NCBI GenBank assembly: GCA_963714015.1
Contig: OY970223.1
Coordinates: 3,104,001 to 3,168,000 of the forward strand
Length of the DNA stretch: 64,000 bases
Direction: 5' to 3'
From: Vulcanimicrobiota bacterium
Lineage (GTDB): Bacteria > Vulcanimicrobiota > Vulcanimicrobiia > Vulcanimicrobiales > Vulcanimicrobiaceae
In this document: positions 23,916-35,601 of the stretch, piece after piece
Numbering within the stretch: position 1 is the stretch's first letter
Layout: each line of letters opens with the position of its first letter
The notes under the pieces: model-generated
What the model was told of the DNA's origin: nothing
The model's database searches: none
The model's input: only the letters and a program-made list of their open reading frames with translations
Position numbers and translations under genes: made by a program

Positions 23916-24068
23916 TTAAGCGGCGCGCGCCGGGCGCATCAAAACGACAGCAAAACCCCAGCCGCTTGCCAAACGAGTCCGGACCACGTATCCGCCGGAG
24001 ATTTTTTCATAGACATGGTAGCCTTCACGTAAGGCTTCCGATAGATTCGAAAAAACGACTATTCCCAT
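23916..24068 (-). CDS. Small 50-aa hypothetical protein
   Basis: MGIVVF.NL.EALREGY.VYEK...GYVVRT; TATCGT -10 located 6 nt upstream of ATG. Confidence 0.6.
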   Translation of the reverse strand: MGIVVFSNLSEALREGYHVYEKISGGYVVRTRLASGWGFAVVLMRPARAA

Positions 24069-26409
24069 GACTAAACGATATCGCGGGCGAGCCGAGGCCG
24101 GCACTTACACTGCGACAGTTACTCACACACTGCGAGCACGCAAGGCTTTCGGAGACGTCTTTGAGGACCGCATCCGCTATGCGGACGGCGTCTTCCATTT
24201 GCAGGCCGTTCCCCTCGTTCCAGATGGCCTCGCAGGTTTCGCGCGACAGCAGCGCCGTCGCGGCGGCCACAATCTGCGTGCGCTCCAGTTCCTGAGTGCG
24301 ACCTAGCGGCATACGCATCACTTTGCACGCCGACACCGCGGCCCCGCAAAGCTCCACGGCTTGCTTCGGCCGGTTCGCGTTCAGGCACAAGTGTGCGGCG
24401 GTGAGCAGCATCTGAGCCGTCAGCGGGCGCGCGCCCATCGCGTGGGCCAGCAGCAGCGATTCCTTGAGTGTCCCTGCGCATTCGCAAAGATCGCCTTGCG
24501 CGAGCCGTACTTCCGCGATCCCCTGCAACGCCCGTTGAATGCCGAGCGGGTGGCCGGTCTCGCGCGCCGTTTGCAGCGAACGCGCAAGCAGTTCGATCGC
24601 ATGCGGGAGCTCGCCCAATTCCAGGCGGCAGCGCGCTATGTTCGCGGCGATTAGACACTCGCTCCAAACGTCGCCTACTGCGCGCGCGCGGTTCAACGCC
24701 GGTTCAAAGTGCGCAAGTGCTTCCCGCGCCTTCCCTTCGCGCAGCAGCATTTCGCCGGAGTCAATTTCAGGCTGCGCCTGGGCTTCGTCGAAGCACCGGC
24801 GCGCAGCGTCAAAGTCACCCTCCGCTGCAGCAACCCGCCCGCACGCGACGAGCGCCGCGCGGCTCTCTTCGGGAAAGGACGGCCCGCAAGCTTGTGCCAA
24901 ACCGAGCGCCGTTTCCAATCGTGTCCGCGCTTCCCCGTAGGCGCCGGCGCGGTAGTAATACTCGAACAAATCGGAAGCTAGCAAGAGCGCCGTGCGGACG
25001 TCGCGCTTTTCGACGGTCCACGAAAACGCGCAGCGAAGATTCGTCATGTTCTCGCGTAACCGGCGCAGCCACGTCCGCTGCCCGCTGCCGCCCAGATGCG
25101 CGACCGCCTCCGCCGCGTATGCGGCGTACCAGCACGTATGCCGATCCCGCGCGAGCTGTGCGATTTGCGGATCCGCCACGACCCGCGATCCGAAGTCGCG
25201 AATGACGCCCAGCATTTCGAGCCGCGGTTCGCCTTCGCTCGAGAAAGCGCGCTTGAGCAGATTTTTGTCGGCGAGCGCTTCGAGGATGCCTTCCGTCTCG
25301 GCGCCGTCGCAGCCGCTGTCGGTACACGCCGCCAGCACTGCTTCGGCATGACACCCCGCCGGAAGCGACGCTACGCGTAAGAACGCCCGCCGTTCCTCCT
25401 CGCTGAGCGCATCGTAGCTCCACGCGATCGCCGCTTCCATGGTCGAATGGCGTTGTGCGCCGTCGCGATAGCCGTTCGTAAGGACCGTCAGCGGCGCACG
25501 CATACGGTCGCGCAGTTCCGAAAGCGAGATCTTTCCTAGACGCGCCGCTGCAAGCTCGATGGCGAGCGGCAACCCCTCGAGGCAATCCAAAACTTCGGCG
25601 AGCGCGGTTTGATTCTGCTCCGTGACCGAAAAGGTCCGATCGACGCGCTGCGCCGTCTGGACGAATAGCGCTTGTCCATCCGCGGCGGACAGCGGATCGA
25701 GTTGAAACAGCATCTCGCCGCGGACGTGCAGCGGTTCGCGGCTGGTAATGAGCACACTCAAATCGGGGCAGCGCAGGAGCAGATCGACGATGCGCGGGGC
25801 GGCCGCCAGCACGCGTTCAAAGTTGTCCAGCACCAAGAGCATGCGGCGCGGCTCGAGCGACTCCATTACCGCCGTCATCGCGTCGGGGACGGTGGAAACG
25901 TTGAGCGCGGCCGCTATGGCGGCCGGCAGATGTTCGGGCGCAACGACGTGCTCGAGTTCGATAAACTTGTGGCCATCGCAGCGGCGGCAATGCAGCTGCG
26001 TGCTTACCGCACGCGCCAGCGCGGTCTTTCCCACGCCGCCGGGCCCGACGATTGAGATTAAACGTTCGCCCGAAACCAGCGCATCGCACAGATCGCGCAC
26101 TTCGTCGTCCCGGCCGATCAGAGGACGCAGTTCCGCAACGCCGTTATGCACGCTCGCCAGCGACGCCAAACCGCGAACCCGCGGTTTTCCTTGTGCGGCA
26201 ATCTCAAACTCAGCGCGTTCGTCATCCGAGAGACCGAGCGCCGATGCTAAGCGCAAAACGGTGTCCTTGTAAGGACGCGAGCGAGCGCCGCGCTCGAGTG
26301 CGCTGATGGCCTGCACGCTCATGGCGGCGAGCTCCGCAAGCGCTTCCTGCGAGAGCCCCGCTCTAATCCGCCGTTCCTTGAGCAGCTCGGCGAACGTCGG
26401 AGAATGCAT
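24025..26409 (-). CDS. XRE-HTH / STAND (NB-ARC-like) ATPase / TPR regulator
   Basis: GLSQEALA...S..AISALERG; GPGGVGKT; LLVLDNFE; GLPLAIELAA; TGATG coupling to msrA; 3' end may be over-extended. Confidence 0.9.
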   Translation of the reverse strand: MHSPTFAELLKERRIRAGLSQEALAELAAMSVQAISALERGARSRPYKDTVLRLASALGLSDDERAEFEIAAQGKPRVRGLASLASVHNGVAELRPLIGRDDEVRDLCDALVSGERLISIVGPGGVGKTALARAVSTQLHCRRCDGHKFIELEHVVAPEHLPAAIAAALNVSTVPDAMTAVMESLEPRRMLLVLDNFERVLAAAPRIVDLLLRCPDLSVLITSREPLHVRGEMLFQLDPLSAADGQALFVQTAQRVDRTFSVTEQNQTALAEVLDCLEGLPLAIELAAARLGKISLSELRDRMRAPLTVLTNGYRDGAQRHSTMEAAIAWSYDALSEEERRAFLRVASLPAGCHAEAVLAACTDSGCDGAETEGILEALADKNLLKRAFSSEGEPRLEMLGVIRDFGSRVVADPQIAQLARDRHTCWYAAYAAEAVAHLGGSGQRTWLRRLRENMTNLRCAFSWTVEKRDVRTALLLASDLFEYYYRAGAYGEARTRLETALGLAQACGPSFPEESRAALVACGRVAAAEGDFDAARRCFDEAQAQPEIDSGEMLLREGKAREALAHFEPALNRARAVGDVWSECLIAANIARCRLELGELPHAIELLARSLQTARETGHPLGIQRALQGIAEVRLAQGDLCECAGTLKESLLLAHAMGARPLTAQMLLTAAHLCLNANRPKQAVELCGAAVSACKVMRMPLGRTQELERTQIVAAATALLSRETCEAIWNEGNGLQMEDAVRIADAVLKDVSESLACSQCVSNCRSVSAGLGSPAISFSHGNSRFFESIGSLT
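24107..24135 (-). repeat. Direct repeat TCGCAGTGT x2 (20-bp period), candidate operator
   Basis: Exact 9-mers at 24107-24115 and 24127-24135 upstream of the small gene. Confidence 0.55.
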
Positions 26410-26975
26410 CAGCAAGCGTACGCGCGTAGGCGTTCGCGCGCAAAGTAGTGCTGATGATATTCCTCTGCCCGGTAGAAGGTCGCGGCCGGTTCGATCTCAG
26501 TCACGATCGGTCTACGGTACGTGCCCCCGGCGACCAGACGATCGCGTGAACTGACGGCGGCCCGGCGCTGCTCGGGCGAATGGATGAAGATGCGTGAGCG
26601 GTATTGCGGCCCGACGTCGTAGCCCTGGCGGTTTGCCGATGTCGGATCGTGGAGACGCCAGAAGCGTTCCAGCAGGTCGCCGTACGTCGTAACGAGCGGA
26701 TCGTACGTCAGCCGTACCACCTCGGCATGCCCGGTGTCTCCGGCACAGATGTCGCGGAAGGTCGGGTTCTCGAGTGAGCCGCCGCAGTAACCGACGGCCG
26801 TTTCGACGACACCCGGCAGAGCCGCGAATGCGGCCTCCAGCGTCCAAAAACAACCGCCGGCAAAGGTCGCCGTGGCCAAGTTCGCCGTGCCGAGATAAGC
26901 CCGTGAGGGGGGCGCCGTCCGCAGTTTTTCCGCCGCCCAAGCTACGTCGTCTTCAGTGATAGGCAGTGTGAGCAT
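26409..26975 (-). CDS. msrA: Peptide methionine sulfoxide reductase A
   Basis: GGCFW, TGHAE, HDPT..NRQG.D.G.QYRS, AEEYHQ.Y. Confidence 0.96.
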
Positions 26976-27149
26976 GCTCTAACGGTACTGCGGCGGGCGA
27001 TTCCGGAACAGGAAATTTCTCACATTTTGGTATCTGCCGGGTCCCTACACGCCAATGTGTGGGTGAAGTGTGCGGGTGTCGATGTTTGCCGAACCGCCGT
27101 TGTCCTAGGATGCCGTCATAACCCATCCTCCGCGAAAGGCAAAAGTTCA

Positions 27150-28259
27150 GTGAATCATCGTCTCCTGGCCGCAGCGACGGCCTCAGTTCTGGCGGCGCTC
27201 TCGATGGCCGCCTGCGGCGGCGGCTCTTCGGTTCCGGTCGTGAAGACGACCGCGGTTCCGACCACCACTCCCACCACCGCTCCCAAAGTCAACACTCAGG
27301 CATTGTGGGTCGCAAACGGCGCAAACGTCGTTGAGTTCGGCCCTTCACAGCTGACCGCCACGGTCGGCGATCCCATCCCGCAAGCCGCGATTAACAGCAC
27401 CGTCTTCGGCGCGCCTCAGGGCGTCCAATTCGATGCCAAGGGCGACCTGTGGGTCATAGACGGCGGCACAGTGGCAGCCGGAGGAACCATCGCCCCGGCG
27501 CTGTTCGAGTTCACCCCGCAGCAGCTTGCCCAGTTGCACACGAACGCCACGCCCGCTCCGGCCGCGACGATCCGTTTCAACGGCTTCGTCTTTCCGCAGC
27601 AAGGCGTGTTCGACAAGAACGGCAACTTTTGGGTGACGGATAACGGTGCGAATGCCGTCGACGTGTTCTCCCCCTCGGAACTGGCTGCGGGCGGCGCGAA
27701 CGTCGCGCCGATTGCATCCATCTCGGCCGGCTTTACCGGACCGCTCGGCATCGCCTTCGACGCGATGGGCGATCTGTTCGTCGCCAACAACGGCACGACC
27801 ACGATCTTCGGCTTCAAAGCGAGCAAGCTGCCCGCGAGCGGCAACGCGACGCTGACGCCGGACGTCACGCTCTCGGACGACGGGGCGGGTTCCATTCAGG
27901 GGCCGTGGGCATTGGTCTTCGATCAACGCGGCGATCTCTGGTCCAGCAACGCCAACGCGCCGTTCACACTCGTCGAGTTCAGCTCCTCACAGATCGCCGC
28001 ATCGGGTTCGCCGAGGCCGATCGTGACGCTCAGCCCGACCACCGTTCAAGCCAACTCAACGCTGAACGCGCCGAACGGCATCGCGTTCGACAGCATCGGC
28101 GACCTCGCCGCCATCAGCTCCGCAACGCCTTTCGGCGTCGCAGACTTCGGCTTCGCTCAACTCACCAGCAGCGCGGCGGTGCCTCCCACTGCGTTCATGG
28201 TTGGAACGACGACGACGCTCAACGCTCCGGCCGGCGACGTCTTCGGCGCGAGCTTCTAA
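27150..28259 (+). CDS. Surface lipoprotein with NHL repeats
   Basis: Lipobox SMAAC-GGGSS; five P.G..FD..GDLW-type repeats. Confidence 0.85.
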   Translation: MNHRLLAAATASVLAALSMAACGGGSSVPVVKTTAVPTTTPTTAPKVNTQALWVANGANVVEFGPSQLTATVGDPIPQAAINSTVFGAPQGVQFDAKGDLWVIDGGTVAAGGTIAPALFEFTPQQLAQLHTNATPAPAATIRFNGFVFPQQGVFDKNGNFWVTDNGANAVDVFSPSELAAGGANVAPIASISAGFTGPLGIAFDAMGDLFVANNGTTTIFGFKASKLPASGNATLTPDVTLSDDGAGSIQGPWALVFDQRGDLWSSNANAPFTLVEFSSSQIAASGSPRPIVTLSPTTVQANSTLNAPNGIAFDSIGDLAAISSATPFGVADFGFAQLTSSAAVPPTAFMVGTTTTLNAPAGDVFGASF

Positions 28260-28444: not shown

Positions 28445-30541
28445 TCACTTATGGGAAGCAATGATCTCCGCGTACGTTTTGCTGGCCTCCGTCGGAACGC
28501 GAGTCAGGTTCGGATCGCGATCGAGATCGATATGATAGAGTCCGAAATCGCTGCTGTCGTCGAACGGCAAGCCCCACTCGCGGTTGGAGGTGATGCTCCA
28601 GCAAAGATAGGCGACTACCGGAGAGCCGCGCTGCACCGCGCGATCGACTTGTGCGATGTGCGCCTCCAAGTAACGCGCGCGGGAAAAACCGTCCGCATTC
28701 GTGACGCAGCCGTTTTCGATTACGATGATCGGTTTGCCCGGAAACAACTCTTCCGTTTCACGCAGAATGTCGTCCAGAACGCTGGGCCACACCGGAGCCA
28801 TCGCATAGTGACATTCGGCGGCAGCTGAAAGCCGGTGCAATTCGTTCGGCCAGAACGAGGGGATTCCCCAGTAATAATCGACACCGGCAAAGTCGAGCGC
28901 GCCTACGCACTCCCGCGGACACAGAAACTCCGGCAGCCGGCCGGCCATGCCGAGGTTCCACCAATTCGTGCCCACCAGTGTCCCGAACATTCCAATCGAC
29001 TTGCGCAGTCCGTCGAAGACGTGCAGGGGCGAGCGCGTCGCGTTCAGCCGGCGGTTCCCCGTAACGGGAACGAATCGCACCGGCGCATGCTCCGATCCGA
29101 AGATCTCTGCGGCAATGCAGCGCGCCAAATCGGGTTCCATGCCGGAGTAGTTTCCGCGATCGTCGCACGCGCACAGTCCTTCGACGCCGGGGCGGACTCC
29201 GACGCGCAGAATACCCCGCTTGCGGATCGCTTCCAACGATCGATCCGGTTCGGGTCCGGCGAGGTCAGTGCTCGCCAGCGTGTTGCGGTTGTGTCCCTCG
29301 GGCAGCTCGGGATGACTCTTTTTGTACTTGCGCAGCGCGCGGTCTACGGCATCCAGCAGCGAGCGGCTACCCAGCGCGACGGCCACGCCGTAGGCATGCG
29401 GATGCGCCGGAATCAGCGAGATCGCGAACGGATCGGCTGAATATTGCCGCAGCATCACGTCGTCGTGAAACACGGCGTCGATCGTTCCCTCGCGCAGGGC
29501 CTGAACCGCCGCGTCGGTTTGCGCGTAATAGCGGACGTCAGCGGCGGTAAATATACCGCCGGACATCTCGGCCGCCGGCGTATCCTCCACAACGCCGGCG
29601 CGGCCTTTCCACTCCAGAAGATCCGCAGGCAGCGATGCTGCGGCGCGATGAAGCACCGCTAAGTGCACCAGCAGGTACGGCTCCGAAAAAAAGACTCGAT
29701 GCATCCGCTTCTGGGTCATGGTCAGCTGCGCGATGGAAATGTCCACTTGGCCGCTGTCGACGAAGCCGTGTTCCGCAAGCAGCTTTCCGCGCCGGCGAGC
29801 TTGCTCCGGCGACTTCAGATGCGTGGCATTGCGGTCGACCAGCCGCTGAAGCCAGCGCGGAAGACCGAGGACCAGCGGATTCGAGCCGACCAGTGCTTGC
29901 GGCTGTACGGCGCGGATCGCCTCACGCGCCCGCGCGTGCGCTCGGAACAGGTTCGGAATGAGCTGCAAAACGGCGTCCATCTGACGCTCGCCGGAAGCGC
30001 CCGGTTCCAGCCCCGGCGGCATGGGATAGGCCCGCATCCAAAAACCTTTGATGAAGCCGTAAACGAGTTGGCTCGGCTCGTTGAGAGTGACGTAATAGTC
30101 GATCAGATCGCCGAGCCGGCTCGCCACTTGTGATGCATAGGCGGCCATGCGCGCCGGAAAATGCGAATCGAGCAATCCGGCTCCGTTTCCCGCCGCCTGC
30201 ACGTGCAGCGGCCATGTATTGTGGTGCAGGGTGACGACAGTCATCATCTGCGCGTCGCGCATGTACTGAAGTACCTCGCGGTAATGCGCGAAAACGGATT
30301 CATCCCAGATGCCGGCTTCGGGCTCGAGCCGTGCCCAGGACAATGAAAGCCGGAAGGCCGAACAGCCTAGCCCCCTGGCGAGATCGACGTCTTCACGGTA
30401 GCGGTTCCAAAAATCGGTTGCCTTACCGCGCGGCGTGAGTCCGCGTACGCGTTCCCAAACGTCGCGCACGTCGTCTTGTCCGTTATAGGCTTCGCATTGG
30501 TGATCGGCGGTGGCCACGCCGAAGCGGTAGCGTTTCTGCAT
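28445..30541 (-). CDS. Family 1 glycoside hydrolase with inserted family-3 solute-binding domain
   Basis: FGVATA.HQ.E, FRLSLSWAR, TLHH, TLNEP, IENG, WS...N.EW, FGL; SBP motifs at about 29045-29760. Confidence 0.88.
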   Translation of the reverse strand: MQKRYRFGVATADHQCEAYNGQDDVRDVWERVRGLTPRGKATDFWNRYREDVDLARGLGCSAFRLSLSWARLEPEAGIWDESVFAHYREVLQYMRDAQMMTVVTLHHNTWPLHVQAAGNGAGLLDSHFPARMAAYASQVASRLGDLIDYYVTLNEPSQLVYGFIKGFWMRAYPMPPGLEPGASGERQMDAVLQLIPNLFRAHARAREAIRAVQPQALVGSNPLVLGLPRWLQRLVDRNATHLKSPEQARRRGKLLAEHGFVDSGQVDISIAQLTMTQKRMHRVFFSEPYLLVHLAVLHRAAASLPADLLEWKGRAGVVEDTPAAEMSGGIFTAADVRYYAQTDAAVQALREGTIDAVFHDDVMLRQYSADPFAISLIPAHPHAYGVAVALGSRSLLDAVDRALRKYKKSHPELPEGHNRNTLASTDLAGPEPDRSLEAIRKRGILRVGVRPGVEGLCACDDRGNYSGMEPDLARCIAAEIFGSEHAPVRFVPVTGNRRLNATRSPLHVFDGLRKSIGMFGTLVGTNWWNLGMAGRLPEFLCPRECVGALDFAGVDYYWGIPSFWPNELHRLSAAAECHYAMAPVWPSVLDDILRETEELFPGKPIIVIENGCVTNADGFSRARYLEAHIAQVDRAVQRGSPVVAYLCWSITSNREWGLPFDDSSDFGLYHIDLDRDPNLTRVPTEASKTYAEIIASHK

Positions 30542-30584
30542 GCGCAACGGATGTTCGCCGCCGAGCGCGAACCCCTCCGGCGCA

Positions 30585-31317
30585 ATGAGATTCAGCAACA
30601 AAACTTGCTTGGTAACGGGAGGCGGTTCCGGAATCGGTCGCGCAACGTGCGTGCGCATGGCTGCCGAAGGCGGAAACGTCGTTGTGGCCGACCTGCACCA
30701 ACAGGCGGCACAGGCAACCGCGGATCAGATTGGAGCCGCGGGCGGGCGCGCGATCGCGGTGGAGCTCGACGTAGGCAACTCCGCGCAGGTCCAAGCGGGC
30801 ATAGCGAAAGCGCTCGAGTCGTTCGGCTCGCTTGACGTCATCGTGAACGACGCCGCGATGATGACCTTTCAGCCGATCGTCGATCTGCCCGAAGCCGATT
30901 TTTTCCGCGTGATTACCACAAACTTAGGGTCGGTATTCTTCTTCGCCAAGTACGGTGTGCCGCATATGCCGCCCGGCTCCTCGATCGTCAACATCAGACT
31001 CCGTGCATGCCCACGAGACGACGGAGAACGTCGTTCCTTACGCGGCTTCAAAAGGCGCGATCGAGTCTTTTACTCGCGGCTTCAGCATCGAGATGGAGTC
31101 GCGGAAGATCCGCGTGAACAGCGTCGCTCCCGGAGCCGTCGATACGCCGATGCTCTGGAACAATCCCAACGTCAAGAGCGGCGCCGAGAAGATCGAAGGT
31201 GCAATCGGAAAACCCGAGGACCTCGCCGCGGCAATCTGCTTCATCGCCTCGGACGAAGCGCGCTTCGTCAATGGAACGACGCTGGTGGTCGACGGCGGCC
31301 GCCTGGATATTCTTTAG
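30585..31317 (+). CDS. SDR oxidoreductase; frameshift near 30998
   Basis: TGGGSGIG, VNDAA, repaired VNISSVH, YAASKG, VDGG. Confidence 0.9.
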
Positions 31318-31527: not shown

Positions 31528-32058
31528 GTGATTTTGGCTGCCGGAACGTCGAGCCGTTTCGGCGGCCGTAATAAGTTGCTCGTGCACGAAGCGGGCCAAA
31601 CGCCGCTCATCGCTCGCGCCATCCGCGCGTGCGCCGGCTTTCCGGTCGTCGCCGTTTGCTCGCTCGAGACCGCGCCGCCCGCTGAAGCTCTGGGCGCCGT
31701 CGTCGTCATGAACGACGCTCCGCAATACGGCATGGCGCACTCGTTGCAACTCGCCGATGCGGCCGTCGCGCCGGAACGGGCGATTGCAATATTGCCCGCC
31801 GATCTCGCCGAGATCGAGCCGCAGCACTTACGCCTGCTCGCGGAGCGCTTCCGCGGCGTCGACGTACTCTATCCGCGTCGCCGTGACGGAACACCCGGGC
31901 ATCCCGTTCTTTTCTCGGCGCAGGCGCGCCGCGGAATTGCGGCCTTACCGCGCGGGGACACCATTCGCATGCTGCGTGCCGCTCCGCGCTTGCGGCGTCT
32001 TGCCGTTGAGATAGACGACGCCTGGCCTTATCATGACGTCGACGGTCCCGGCTTGTGA
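31528..32058 (+). CDS. Molybdenum cofactor cytidylyltransferase (MocA)-like nucleotidyltransferase
   Basis: ILAAG.SSRFG..NKLL, GMAHSL, GHPVLF, DVD; adjacent to a molybdoenzyme; start uncertain. Confidence 0.8.
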   Translation: MILAAGTSSRFGGRNKLLVHEAGQTPLIARAIRACAGFPVVAVCSLETAPPAEALGAVVVMNDAPQYGMAHSLQLADAAVAPERAIAILPADLAEIEPQHLRLLAERFRGVDVLYPRRRDGTPGHPVLFSAQARRGIAALPRGDTIRMLRAAPRLRRLAVEIDDAWPYHDVDGPGL

Positions 32059-32084
32059 TATTGAGCCGCGAACCGGTATCGAGA

Positions 32085-34166
32085 TCACAACAGCGCTTCG
32101 GGAGCGATCGGCAACTCGCGAACGCGCACGCCGGTCGCGTGATAGACGGCATTTGCGACGGCAGCGGCCGAGCCCGTCATCGCAACTTCGCCAATGCCTT
32201 TGACGTGCGCCGCGTTGATGTGCGGATCGTCTTCTTCGACGATGATGATCTCCGGATACAGAATGTCGGCATGCGTTGGAACCAGATACTCGGAAAGATT
32301 GGCATTCATGATTCGCGCCGTGCGCGTGTCGTAGCGCGTCTTCTCGTAAAGCGCCATGCTGATGCCCCACACGATCCCGCCGAGGAATTGGCTGCGCGCC
32401 GTCTTCTCGTTGAGGATTCGTCCGCCGTCGTAAGCACCGACGAATCGCGTGACGTGCACCGTACCCAAATCCGGATCGACTTCGACTTGAGCAAACTGCG
32501 CGCCGAAGGATTGCTGAGCGAAGTTGCGCTCGACGGATTCGTCGGGTTTGTCCTCTACCGTAAAATCGAAACCGGCCTCCGGAACCTCGCCGCCCGACGC
32601 CTCCAGCGCCGCGGCCAGTTTTTGCGCCGCTGCAACGACCGCCGAACCGACGCTCGCGGCCGTCTGCGAGCCGGCGGCCAAAGGCGCCTCCGGGAGCAGC
32701 GTGTCGCCCCATTCGAAGTGCACGCGTTCGTATGGGAGATTTAGAATCTCCGCGGCAAGCTGCGCGTACACGGTCGAAGATCCCGTGCCTTGTTCGATCG
32801 TGCCGCTCTGCACCCGCACTGCTCCGCCGGCGGACATGATAATGCGAATGGTTGCCGCGCTGCGGTGCACGGAACGCGATGCCGTCGCCATGCCCAGGCC
32901 AACCAGCATCCGGCCGTCGCGCATGGAGCGCGGCTGCGGGTTGCGCCGGCTCCATCCGAAGGCTTCGGCCGCCAGCGTATACGCGCGATCCAGATGTTTG
33001 CTGGTATACGGCTTGCCCGAATCAGGGTCGTTCGCCGAATAGTTGCGCCGGCGCAGCTCCAGCGGATCGATTCCGAGTTCGTACGCGAGCTCGTCCATCG
33101 CGGATTCGAGCGCGAACGAGCCGGTCGACTCACCGGGCGCGCGCTGAAACGTCGGTTTGCTGATGTGCAGCCGCCGCAGTTCTTGCGACATTGAAAAGTT
33201 CGCCGTCGCGTAGAGATCCCGGCTGAATACTGTGCTCGGCTCGACGTATTCGTCCGCGATGCTGGTTTCATTAGCGGATCGATGCATAACGCAAAGCAGC
33301 CGGCCGTCACGATCGGCGCCCAGACAGATGTGCTGCTCGGTCTGCGGACGGTGCCCGACCCAGCCGAACATCTGCGGACGAGTAACAAGCAGCATCACGG
33401 GCCGTCCGACGACCTTGGCTGCCATTGCGGCAAGCGGAACGTGCGACCACGGTTGGCCTTTGCTCCCGAACGCGCCGCCGACGAACGGCGCAATGACGCG
33501 CACGTTCTCCTTCGGAATTCCGAAGACGTGCGCCAACCTGTTGCGCACGCCGAACGCCCACTGCGTCGAGTCGTGCAGCGTCAACCGGTCATCTTCCCAG
33601 TACGCGAGGGTCCCGTGCGTCTCCATGGGATTGTGATGCTCGGTGGGCGTGCGGTACGTTCGCTCGATTCGCACTGGCGCGTCCGCAAATGCCGCCTGCG
33701 GTGTGCCGCGCTCGTGGGTGGCCGGCTCCCCGAATATTTCCTTCGGCAAAAAGACTTCGCCACGATCCAAGTCCGTGACCGGCGCTTGCGCTTCATACGT
33801 TACGTGCACCAAATCGGCGGCGTGAACGGCTTGTTCGAGCGTCTGCGCAACCACGACCGCAACGGGCTGCCGGTCGAACTCGACGCGATCGTTCTGCAGT
33901 AAGAACAATATCGAATCCATCGGCGACGTCCGGCAGGCATCCACTTTCGGCGCGTTGCGGTGCGTGAGCACTTCCAGCACTCCCGGTATTGCGCGCGCCA
34001 CGGACTCGTCGATCGAAACGATTCTGCCGTTCGCCACTGCGCTCGCAACAACGACGGCATGCGTCATTCCCTCGATGGCGTTGTCGCCGGTATAGACGGC
34101 CCGGCCGGTAACTTTGTCGACTCCGTCCTTGCGGTCTATCGGCTTGCCGATCAACGGCTGACTCAT
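32085..34166 (-). CDS. Xanthine dehydrogenase family molybdopterin subunit (PaoC/YagR-like)
   Basis: R.DG..KVTG.A.Y, HNPME, VGGAFGSK, RAPGE, KGIGE. Confidence 0.93.
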   Translation of the reverse strand: MSQPLIGKPIDRKDGVDKVTGRAVYTGDNAIEGMTHAVVVASAVANGRIVSIDESVARAIPGVLEVLTHRNAPKVDACRTSPMDSILFLLQNDRVEFDRQPVAVVVAQTLEQAVHAADLVHVTYEAQAPVTDLDRGEVFLPKEIFGEPATHERGTPQAAFADAPVRIERTYRTPTEHHNPMETHGTLAYWEDDRLTLHDSTQWAFGVRNRLAHVFGIPKENVRVIAPFVGGAFGSKGQPWSHVPLAAMAAKVVGRPVMLLVTRPQMFGWVGHRPQTEQHICLGADRDGRLLCVMHRSANETSIADEYVEPSTVFSRDLYATANFSMSQELRRLHISKPTFQRAPGESTGSFALESAMDELAYELGIDPLELRRRNYSANDPDSGKPYTSKHLDRAYTLAAEAFGWSRRNPQPRSMRDGRMLVGLGMATASRSVHRSAATIRIIMSAGGAVRVQSGTIEQGTGSSTVYAQLAAEILNLPYERVHFEWGDTLLPEAPLAAGSQTAASVGSAVVAAAQKLAAALEASGGEVPEAGFDFTVEDKPDESVERNFAQQSFGAQFAQVEVDPDLGTVHVTRFVGAYDGGRILNEKTARSQFLGGIVWGISMALYEKTRYDTRTARIMNANLSEYLVPTHADILYPEIIIVEEDDPHINAAHVKGIGEVAMTGSAAAVANAVYHATGVRVRELPIAPEALL

Positions 34167-35143
34167 GTGCCGGCCGCAATCTCCAGCGCGCGCACCAGCG
34201 TGCGTTTCGCCAAGGGAATTTTGAAATCGTTCTGCCCGTAGCCGCACGCGTTGGCCAGTGCCGCCTCCGCCGCCCGCGCGTAACTCTCGCGTGAGGGTGC
34301 AGCGCCGTTGAGCGCGTTCTCCGCTTCGTGCGATCGCCAAGGGATAGTGGCGATCCCTCCCAGCGCAATGCGGCAACTCTGAATAACGCCGCCCTCAACA
34401 TTCACGGCTACGGCCGCCGACGCGAGCGCGAACTCATAGGCGGCGCGATTGCGCGCTTTGAGATACGTTGAATGTGCAGCAAACGACGGGAGCGGTATGG
34501 TGATTCCGGTAATCAGTTCGCCCGGCTCGAGTGCGTTTTCAATGTGCGGCGTATCGCCCGGCAGACGGTAAAACCGCGCGAACGGAATCTCCCGCGAGCC
34601 CTTCGCTCCGGTAACCTGTACCACCGTGTCGAGCGCGGCTAGAACGACTGCCGCATCCGATGCATGGGTTGCAATGCAATGCTCGCTCGTTCCGAGCACG
34701 GCTTCCATCCGGTTCATGCCGCCGATTGCGCCGCAACCGCTACCCGGTTCGCGCTTGTTGCAGGCCGTCGCAACGTCACGAAAATATGGGCAGCGCGTGC
34801 GCTGCAGGATGTTGCCGCCCATCGAGGCCATGTTGCGCAGCTGCGGCGACGCGCTGGCGTCCAGCGCGAGCGCCAGCATGGGAACCGCTGCACGAATGCC
34901 CGGGTGAGCAGCGACGTCGCTCATTCGCGCAAGCGCACCAAGCCGCACGCTTGCAGTGTCGCATTCGATTTTCGCAAGCGGCAGCGCGTTGATGTCGACG
35001 AGCATCTCCGGCACTTCAACCGCGTCTTTCATCAAATCCAGAACATTCGTGCCGCCGGCGATGAACTGCGCCCGCACGTTTTCCGAAAGTGCGGTGACTG
35101 CATCCTCCGCCGTCGCCGCGCGCGTGAATGCGAACGGATTCAC
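34163..35143 (-). CDS. Xanthine dehydrogenase family FAD subunit with 4Fe-4S insert (PaoB/YagS-like)
   Basis: AGGTN.LDLMK, ASPQLRNMA..GGN.LQRTRCPYF...CNKR.PGSGC...CIATH. Confidence 0.93.
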   Translation of the reverse strand: MNPFAFTRAATAEDAVTALSENVRAQFIAGGTNVLDLMKDAVEVPEMLVDINALPLAKIECDTASVRLGALARMSDVAAHPGIRAAVPMLALALDASASPQLRNMASMGGNILQRTRCPYFRDVATACNKREPGSGCGAIGGMNRMEAVLGTSEHCIATHASDAAVVLAALDTVVQVTGAKGSREIPFARFYRLPGDTPHIENALEPGELITGITIPLPSFAAHSTYLKARNRAAYEFALASAAVAVNVEGGVIQSCRIALGGIATIPWRSHEAENALNGAAPSRESYARAAEAALANACGYGQNDFKIPLAKRTLVRALEIAAGT

Positions 35144-35601
35144 GTCGATCCGCCGGCTTCCGCGATAGCGTCCACGATGTGGGGATAGCAGCCGCAGCGG
35201 CAGATGTTGCCGCTCATCTGCTCGCGAATCGTCGCCGGGTCGAGGGCATGCCCTTCCGCCAGCATGCCCACCGCCGAAACGATCTGGCCGGGCGTGCAGT
35301 ATCCGCATTGAAAGCCGTCGTGCTTGATGAAAGCGGCCTGAAGCGGATGCAGTTTGCCGTCTTTCGCCAAGCCTTCGATCGTCCCGATCTCGTCGCCCTC
35401 GTGCATAACGGCGAGCGTCAAGCATGAAACGATCCGCCGCCCGTTGACCAGAACGGTACACGCGCCGCAGGTACCCTGATCGCAGCCCTTCTTCGTTCCG
35501 GTGAGCGCAAGCGGCCCGCGCAGGGCGTCCAGCAGCGTCACCCGGGATTCGACTTGAATCGTGTGGCGCGCACCGTTGACGGTCAGCGTTACGTCGTGCA
35601 T
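35140..35601 (-). CDS. Xanthine dehydrogenase family 2Fe-2S subunit (PaoA/YagT-like)
   Basis: GTKKGCDQGTCGACTV, QCGYCTPGQ, GNICRC. Confidence 0.93.
   Translation of the reverse strand: MHDVTLTVNGARHTIQVESRVTLLDALRGPLALTGTKKGCDQGTCGACTVLVNGRRIVSCLTLAVMHEGDEIGTIEGLAKDGKLHPLQAAFIKHDGFQCGYCTPGQIVSAVGMLAEGHALDPATIREQMSGNICRCGCYPHIVDAIAEAGGST

Follow-up and report, generated by a model that had tools for sequence, protein, structure and literature searches.

We analyzed a 64,000-nucleotide stretch of a Vulcanimicrobiota bacterium genome (assembly GCA_963714015.1, contig OY970223.1, positions 3,104,001 to 3,168,000; hereafter the window), in which one minus-strand gene encodes a glycoside hydrolase family 1 (GH1) enzyme with a family-3 solute-binding protein (SBP) domain inserted in its barrel. 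By sequence and predicted fold, the product, GH1-SBP, is a cytoplasmic GH1 (β/α)8-barrel β-glycosidase of a divergent subfamily. All positions below are those of the window, and landmark coordinates were verified by translating the chosen codon ranges. The minus-strand frame 28445..30658 is uninterrupted over 737 amino acids (aa). Its ATG at 30541 begins a 698-aa protein (P0001) whose first residues align with the N-termini of homologues (alignment A1), and 28445..30541 contains neither a frameshift nor an internal stop. No signal peptide is evident by eye in the GH1-SBP protein, in which strand β1 begins at residue 6. This agrees with an initial annotation of the same DNA, which had reported an unbroken frame lacking a signal peptide; every sequence landmark it named was recovered by translation, with the linker measuring 22 aa rather than about 25. 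The gene is laid out as follows, in the order of the protein.

28445..30541, minus strand: whole gene, encoding the 698-aa GH1-SBP protein plus the stop codon (open frame, translation, homologue N-termini)
29822..30541, minus: GH1 N-terminal part, residues 1-240 (β1 to α5), with DHQCEA and TLNEP (PF00232 profile 7-218; PDB chain 4r27 against residues 5-157; secondary structure of the model by DSSP)
30488-30505, minus: DHQCEA motif (translation)
30074-30088, minus: TLNEP motif (translation)
30077..30079, minus: Glu155 of TLNEP, predicted catalytic acid/base (E in 137/137 members)
29768..29821, minus: outgoing connector, residues 241-258, with helix 245-256 (model DSSP)
29312..29767, minus: SBP segment 1, residues 259-410, equivalent to the canonical C-terminal two thirds from SGxVD onward (lobe I-a, lobe II, lobe I-b; TIGR01096 profile 80-237, AncQR 65-220, structural match to SocA 5l9o)
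29738-29767, minus: GFVDSGQVDI, containing SGQVD (translation)
29705..29707, minus: Arg279, counterpart of the ligand-carboxylate clamp Arg77 of the lysine/arginine/ornithine-binding (LAO) protein (R in 135/137; aligned with the R of AncQR 'teerk')
29396..29665, minus: SBP lobe II, residues 293-382, fast-evolving and deleted in some natural variants (pairwise identity 0.37; deletions in relatives)
29246..29311, minus: 22-aa linker PELPEGHNRNTLASTDLAGPEP, residues 411-432, of variable length, joining the native SBP C- and N-termini (model confidence, alignment A1, identity 0.39)
29042..29245, minus: SBP segment 2, residues 433-500, equivalent to the canonical N-terminal third (lobe I β1-α1-β2; NF008885 profile 27-92, 1xt8 34-98, AncQR 8-48)
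29207-29245, minus: DRSLEAIRKRGIL in SBP segment 2 (translation)
29042-29080, minus: VRFVPVTGNRRLN in SBP segment 2 (translation)
28904..29041, minus: residues 501-546, return helix 505-520 and subfamily motif NWWxLGMAGxLPxFLCPxEC, followed by β6 (model DSSP; motif common to insert-free relatives)
28448..28903, minus: GH1 C-terminal part, residues 547-698 (β6 to α8), with VDYYW, VIENG and WSITSNREW (4r27 273-401 against residues 550-686; Foldseek GH1 matches)
28709-28723, minus: VIENG motif (translation)
28715..28717, minus: Glu609 of IENG, predicted catalytic nucleophile (E in 137/137 members)
28574-28600, minus: WSITSNREW motif (translation)

The outer parts of the protein form the GH1 host. 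The Pfam profile Glyco_hydro_1 (PF00232) matched with an E value of 1.7e-40 and 139.3 bits (cut-off 22.6), in two stretches split by the insert. Among Protein Data Bank (PDB) sequences, the best-matching solved relatives were ordinary GH1 β-glycosidases, among them 4r27 (phmmer E 2.9e-34), whose chain positions 11-162 and 273-401 aligned with residues 5-157 and 550-686. The full-length model, with a predicted local distance difference test (pLDDT) score of 79.8 and a predicted template-modeling (pTM) score of 0.76, contains eight β/α units. Around the insert, DSSP assigned the order β5 (217-221), α5 (229-240), helix 245-256, SBP, helix 505-520, and β6 (552-556). The Foldseek matches listed for the full model were GH1 chains only, at E about 1e-17 (best 1.6e-17, target-normalized TM score 0.64); the GH1 matches listed had target-normalized TM scores of 0.58-0.68. 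Because only GH1 chains were among those listed, we modeled the insert separately.

Conservation was counted over 137 family members. Residues E155, E609, Q15, H107, N154, Y557, W648 and E655 are each present in all 137, and W656 in 136. Since the catalytic and sugar-binding residues are kept, with TLNEP and VIENG both intact as the initial annotation had described, GH1-SBP should be catalytically competent. Like the GH1 β-glucosidases BGL167 (4r27), Cba3 (8znv) and 1vff, it combines a (β/α)8 barrel with an NEP acid/base after β4 and an ENG nucleophile after β7, and at the positions that bind the glycone it keeps Q, H, N, Y, W and E/W. Unlike them, it has about 242 aa of SBP plus connectors between α5 and β6, and the motifs ADHQCEA, NWWxLGMAGxLPxFLCPxEC and WSITSNREW. 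It also scored far below the cut-off of the NCBIfam β-glucosidase equivalog TIGR03356 (156.7 bits; cut-off 478.5), indicating that the protein is a GH1 member but not a standard β-glucosidase orthologue. The initial annotation had listed ADHQCEA and WSITSNREW as deviant substrate motifs alongside the insertion. They are indeed unusual, but all three motifs also occur in relatives that have no insert, making them a trait of the GH1 subfamily and not of the fusion.

Seven cysteines (Cys16, Cys60, Cys457, Cys541, Cys545, Cys612 and Cys647) are conserved in 125-137 of the 137 members. Three of the conserved cysteines flank catalytic motifs (QCE, ENGC and CWS), two lie in FLCPxEC directly before β6, and most of the seven are also found in insert-free relatives. 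These cysteines might form a metal site or confer redox sensitivity.

Between helix α5 and strand β6 of the barrel lie about 242 aa of family-3 SBP. The Pfam profile SBP_bac_3 (PF00497), like that of GH1, matched in two stretches (E 4.7e-12; 46.3 bits against a cut-off of 26.4). NCBIfam profiles placed the two parts in inverted order: positions 80-237 of 250 of TIGR01096, the LAO-type profile, aligned with residues 262-407 (E 5.7e-15, under its full-length cut-off), and positions 27-92 of 259 of NF008885 aligned with residues 432-497, downstream of the TIGR01096 match. Thus, the canonical order of SBP elements is not followed, as profile 80-237 comes before 27-92 along the protein. A single solved chain, AncQR (4zv1), revealed the same arrangement, with insert positions 7-155 matching chain 65-220 and insert positions 187-227 matching chain 8-48; other PDB chains, such as 1xt8 (34-98), match the N-terminal third alone. 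These profile and chain matches score far beyond chance.

The cut falls between strand β2 (VRFVPV) and the helix preceding SGxVD; from its place in the sequence, helix 245-256 probably replaces SBP helix α2. The native termini are joined by the 22-aa linker, which has pLDDT <50 at residues 420-429 and varies greatly in length among homologues in A1. In P0006, the linker (A1 columns 440-482) is Ser/Pro/Ala-rich and exceeds that of P0001 by about 45 aa, an expansion that fits an unconstrained tether.

Modeled alone (residues 255-505, from a 40-row alignment), the insert folded as one compact domain of the SBP type, with pLDDT 91.9 and pTM 0.88. In Foldseek searches with the insert, single SBPs aligned over about 150 columns at 2-3 Å, while the tandem SBPs of BvgS (4q0c) and GlnPQ (SBD1-SBD2, 6h30) aligned over 253-261 columns. 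Longer alignment with tandem than with single SBPs is the classic signature of a circular permutant. VIA-align matched the insert to SocA (5l9o) with Z 14.3 and a root-mean-square deviation of 2.4 Å over 154 aa at 29% identity, with many amino-acid binders within 1 Z. The insert model is nearer to closed, liganded forms, as it superposed on arginine-bound arginine-binding protein (ArgBP, 6ggv) at 2.0 Å over 145 aa versus 6.5 Å over 149 aa for apo ArgBP (4prs_A). Assignment of the SBP N-terminal third comes from the sequence matches and the tandem-SBP alignment, not from a non-sequential structural alignment. Together, the NCBIfam profiles, the AncQR match and the fold searches bear out the earlier description of SBP halves in reverse order, and the position of the cut and linker bears out that of a clean circular permutation with the native termini joined.

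The insert shares with family-3/cluster-F SBPs (LAO, HisJ, GlnBP, ArgBP, AncQR and SocA) the bilobed type-II fold (Z 13-14.3; 2-3 Å over about 150 aa), a putative Arg77-type carboxylate clamp, and the SGxVD and FSxPY motifs. It differs from them in being permuted, with the cut between β2 and α2 and the termini joined by a variable linker, and in not being exported. It also has no transporter genes nearby, other residues stand in place of two LAO ligand contacts (Asp11 and Tyr14), and conservation of lobe II is poor.

We found nothing in favor of an assembly chimera, a pseudogene or chance similarity as the source of the architecture, although a short-chain dehydrogenase/reductase (SDR) gene next to GH1-SBP is frameshifted in the assembly, so that indel errors or decay do occur nearby. 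However, the GH1-SBP frame is uninterrupted, the profile matches have E values of 1e-12 to 1e-40, and the architecture recurs widely. Of 119 non-self proteins listed, 116 align over 99-100% of the query, with identities of 57-80%, and both Pfam domains are present in all; source names include Vulcanimicrobiaceae, Baltobacteraceae, Candidatus Cybelea and one Binatia. Database labels of the homologues are automatic only, reading "family 1 glycosylhydrolase" or β-glucosidase plus amino-acid transport substrate-binding component. We also sampled 201 genomes of the phylum, counting matches at E <= 1e-20 (these tallies take in the unpublished genome G178). Sixty-five genomes gave a match and 64 have the architecture, since G010 matched only through an ordinary GH1; matches were found in 58 of 113 genomes of family f1, 2 of 3 of f2 and 3 of 15 of f3, and in 39 of 44 of genus g4. 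A pattern search of species-representative genomes gave 602 matches, and 552 of these encode a relative.

Wider searches extended the range. At E <= 1e-30, 222 proteins were found among 1.84 billion cluster representatives. Among them, seventeen further 50%-identity clusters, with members labeled Verrucomicrobiota and Thermoflexales, contain the full architecture in one alignment (residues about 5-694) at 35-52% identity. In the ESM Atlas, three clusters carry both domains, one with 93 members (commonest phylum Vulcanimicrobiota) and two with 176 and 51 (Verrucomicrobiota). Because there are many independent sources, with recurrence in hundreds of independent assemblies, the architecture is neither a chimera nor a one-off. 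We therefore reject an assembly artefact, which the homologues, the 201-genome sample and the species-representative genomes make extraordinarily improbable. The architecture is old, and its conservation extends across several phyla. One 62%-identical full-length copy (L070, DATMKR010000011.1) lies in a genome labeled Candidatus Acidoferrum sp., whereas nearly all other close copies are labeled Eremiobacterota/Vulcanimicrobiota; it could reflect mis-binning, a labeling issue or gene transfer.

What the insert does is less clear-cut. As in domain-insertion enzymes, a ligand-binding-type domain lies within the catalytic domain. In triosephosphate isomerase (TIM) barrels, α-to-β loops sit on the face opposite the active site. 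Since the insert follows α5, and so occupies an α-to-β loop, barrel topology would place it on the face away from the active site, a position that fits allostery better than a lid. The reading that we tentatively favor, while holding it as possible rather than probable, is by analogy that of an accessory metabolite-sensing domain acting allosterically. The insert would serve as a small-molecule sensor with a lobe-I pocket in which Arg279 clamps a carboxylate. Ligand binding or closure could be relayed through the two connecting helices to the α5/β6 region, which holds the active-site Tyr556/557, or could alter the oligomeric state. The outcome would be allosteric tuning of activity, as with the cystathionine β-synthase (CBS) module in the barrel of IMP dehydrogenase (IMPDH). 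In that enzyme, a CBS (Bateman) module sits in a loop on the non-catalytic side of the TIM barrel, is dispensable for catalysis and regulates through the assembly state. GH1-SBP resembles IMPDH in having a natural ligand-binding-type module inserted on the non-catalytic side of a TIM barrel. The two differ in the module (CBS pair versus permuted SBP), in enzyme class and in ligand, which for IMPDH is nucleotides, and regulation is demonstrated for IMPDH only.

In favor of a sensor, the lobe-I half of the pocket is constrained. Occupancies of the lobe-I pocket positions (A271 132, Q272 125, R279 135, P451 121, G452 125, L456 122, E469 136 and R498 135 of 137) exceed the mean pairwise identity of lobe I, which is 0.52-0.54 across its three segments; the GH1 parts average 0.71 and 0.65. 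The loop H/R450-P-G-V-x-G-L-C457 is kept in at least 119 members, as are E469 and R498. In lobe II, the acidic motif F358-D359-D360-D/E361 is found in 103, 114, 101 and 127 members, respectively. For site mapping, residues of AncQR were matched to LAO numbering, a correspondence that we assume, and the mapping is from alignment ranges rather than superposed coordinates. Table 3 of PMC5740067 gives the LAO site residues as Asp11, Tyr14, Ser69/70/72, Arg77, Thr121 and Asp161. Their counterparts in GH1-SBP are as follows.

LAO Arg77: R279, R in 135/137
LAO Ser69: A271, A in 132/137
LAO Ser70: Q272, Q in 125/137
LAO Ser72: T274, T or S in 121/137
LAO Asp161: D360, D in 101/137 (D/E361 in 127)
LAO Thr121: position 321, T or S in 65/137
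LAO Asp11: position 450, H or R in 120/137
LAO Tyr14: position 453, V or I in 122/137

On these counts, the lobe-I half of the pocket appears strongly constrained but remodeled, and the lobe-II half loosely constrained except for the acidic motif. As Arg279 is kept while other canonical contacts are remodeled, the ligand is probably not a standard LAO-type amino acid but some metabolite that bears a carboxylate. In canonical binding proteins, the SBP β1-α1 loop lines the pocket; within this loop (A1 columns 517-582), the Binatia-labeled P0097 has about 60 additional inserted aa and P0120 about 10.

The same Arg279 clamp, present in 135 of 137 members, would also suit a substrate-recognition module, in which the SBP pocket binds the aglycone (an amino-acid-like or carboxylate moiety of a glycoconjugate) or delivers the substrate. 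GH1-SBP would then be a specialized glycoconjugate hydrolase rather than a regulated enzyme. SocA, an SBP that binds the sugar-amino-acid conjugates glucopine and deoxyfructosylglutamine, is among the closest solved matches (29% identity, Z 14.3), but ordinary amino-acid binders lie within 1 Z. The unusual GH1 motifs and the shortfall from the β-glucosidase equivalog score (156.7 versus 478.5 bits) point the same way, yet insert-free relatives have the same motifs, so the SBP is not an obvious determinant of substrate specificity. Moreover, the α-to-β loop is expected to lie away from the active site, and lobe II is variable and sometimes deleted. We consider substrate recognition quite unlikely.

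Several results weigh against the allosteric sensor that we tentatively favor. Four of the LAO contacts, the last four in the list above, are replaced or loosely kept. Mean pairwise identity in lobe II is 0.37, about that of the linker (0.39). Lobe II (about residues 293-382) is deleted in P0096, P0104 and P0113, which have an 83-column gap in A1, and split matches revealed the same deletion in genus g25 (all 6 genomes sampled, G178 among them) and in family f2 (2 of its 3). With lobe II deleted, a two-lobe clamp cannot operate in those lineages. Finally, the insert can be reduced or absent. P0152 (457 aa) and P0161 (487 aa) are insert-free relatives of the same GH1 subfamily, P0141 (484 aa) has only a remnant resembling strand β2 at the insert site, and P0144, P0149 and P0153 have 70-90 aa of unrecognizable sequence there. 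These six reduced forms branch among insert-bearing ones.

The branching order comes from a quick IQ-TREE tree of 418 GH1-core columns and 43 rows hand-picked from about 290 proteins (27 full forms, 4 without lobe II, 6 reduced, and 6 ordinary GH1 enzymes as outgroup). The subfamily forms one clade with a Shimodaira-Hasegawa-like approximate likelihood ratio test (SH-aLRT) value of 100, and its earliest branches are full-length forms. Well-supported branches force at least 3 placements, or changes, for the reduced forms. In approximately unbiased (AU) tests, the constraint that all insert-bearing rows form one clade gave p 0.044, and that all reduced rows do so gave p 0.046. Ancestral insertion followed by repeated loss is favored but, because the AU values are borderline, not firmly shown.

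The insert could instead be a structural or oligomerization appendage or a decaying relic that no longer binds a small molecule and persists as a scaffold, as an interface or in slow loss. Lobe II evolving at the linker's rate and deleted in at least two groups, insert-free relatives nested among insert-bearing ones with at least 3 changes, the β2-like remnant of P0141, and the replacement of several canonical ligand contacts all fit this explanation. It accounts less well for lobe I, whose pocket-lining positions are kept across phyla above the lobe average, or for the retention of the insert by most lineages, even those with overall identity as low as 35%. In addition, the distant members P0127, P0132 and P0146 have more canonical SBP motifs, such as a G-S-T/A lobe-II motif, and the AU results leave repeated loss less than firm. 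We judge an appendage or relic unlikely, if less so than substrate recognition. The insert is dispensable for the barrel fold, which also fits an accessory regulatory role such as that of an allosteric sensor.

The initial annotation had gone further, proposing that hinge closure upon ligand binding could regulate the glycosidase. The evidence on this proposal is mixed: conservation of lobe-I Arg279 in 135 of 137 members speaks for it, and the linker-like rate of lobe II, its deletions and the insert-free relatives count against it. A full version of the proposal would be an ancient, natural metabolite-gated glycosidase, in which an SBP was permuted, probably by way of a tandem duplicate, and placed into a TIM barrel. 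In this scheme, residues 411-432 would be the surviving inter-domain linker of the duplicate. We regard it as doubtful, although if it were true, the lobe-II-less and insert-free variants would provide ready-made "switch-deleted" controls.

Domain insertion and circular permutation are a standard laboratory recipe for switches and biosensors, an example being circularly permuted β-lactamase inserted in maltose-binding protein. Biosensors made by domain insertion with periplasmic binding proteins (PBPs) have likewise been engineered (PMC6335823 and PMC4974565). GH1-SBP shares with these switches circular permutation, domain insertion, and the pairing of a PBP fold with an enzyme or reporter. 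Unlike them, it has the binding protein as the permuted guest and the enzyme as host, is natural and ancient, and is only putatively a switch. By analogy, it is a natural parallel to the engineered designs. Two other systems use an SBP fold outside transport. MltF, to which GH1-SBP has a weak match (NF008112, E 0.0022), also places an SBP_bac_3 fold beside a glycan-cleaving enzyme, but as an end-to-end, unpermuted fusion with a lytic transglycosylase. The ligand-binding cores of ionotropic glutamate receptors and GluR0 (1ii5, among the fold matches) use an SBP fold as a sensor with a spliced-in module, but in those receptors it is the channel that is inserted, as guest, into the SBP.

Literature searches on the architecture found no paper on a GH1 enzyme with an inserted permuted SBP and no natural example of a solute-binding fold paired with an enzyme by permutation and insertion; PMC12632509, the one paper found to name both Pfam domains, gives them as separate entries only. 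The architecture is a variant combining known kinds, namely GH1 enzymes, SBP-fold sensors and regulation by domain insertion. Hundreds of genomes from little-studied phyla of soil and peat conserve the design, which comes with variants lacking one lobe or the whole insert. It therefore offers a testable system for how allostery arises by domain insertion and for the origins of circular permutants, and it bears on the role of an uncharacterized GH1 subfamily in Eremiobacterota (Vulcanimicrobiota) and Verrucomicrobiota. If the insert binds a defined metabolite, the protein could be a sensor scaffold.

In neither the window nor 11 related loci does a permease, ATPase or other transporter gene adjoin the GH1-SBP gene, and no conserved transporter, sugar kinase or regulator lies beside it in the related loci, including the 80 that we compared. 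The sole recurrent neighbor is the SDR gene.

30582..31317, plus strand: divergent SDR gene, frameshifted between 30995 and 31000 (frame 2 to frame 3)

The SDR and GH1-SBP genes start about 43 bp apart, on opposite strands. An SDR gene lies within 3 kb in 19 of the 80 related loci, directly upstream and divergent in 15 and 3′-adjacent in 1, and it adjoins the gene in 5 of the 11 separately compared loci, which overlap the 80. It neighbors GH1-SBP in several families and also accompanies lobe-II-less variants. The SDR resembles glucose 1-dehydrogenases but falls under every NCBIfam cut-off (195-205 bits versus 215 for that subfamily, for example). Its pieces are 84-92% identical to the intact orthologue at L014; either the gene is a true pseudogene or the assembly has an indel error there. 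Three soil-metagenome DNA contig sets from one study share 0.06-0.27 of the stretch and leave the frameshift site uncovered. No RNA data set was among the sequencing runs listed as containing the stretch.

Downstream of the gene lie a 796-aa protein with helix-turn-helix (HTH), STAND/NB-ARC NTPase and tetratricopeptide repeat (TPR) regions (24028-26415, minus strand) and an NHL-repeat protein (27027-28259, plus strand). NHL-repeat paralogues are found near the gene in several relatives (16 of 80 loci), a pattern more suggestive of lineage-specific synteny than of a functional link. At 31528-35461, a MobA-like nucleotidyltransferase adjoins the molybdopterin- and FAD-binding subunits of a xanthine/CO-dehydrogenase-family enzyme, in what looks like an ordinary molybdoenzyme cluster.

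The genome contains one other GH1-like frame (G000 contig 1, 845940-847328; L002 1426-2814, plus strand; PF00232 59.7 bits), in whose translation no subfamily motif was seen by eye, without alignment. The N-terminus of the frame preceding it suggests an FAD-dependent UDP-galactopyranose mutase.

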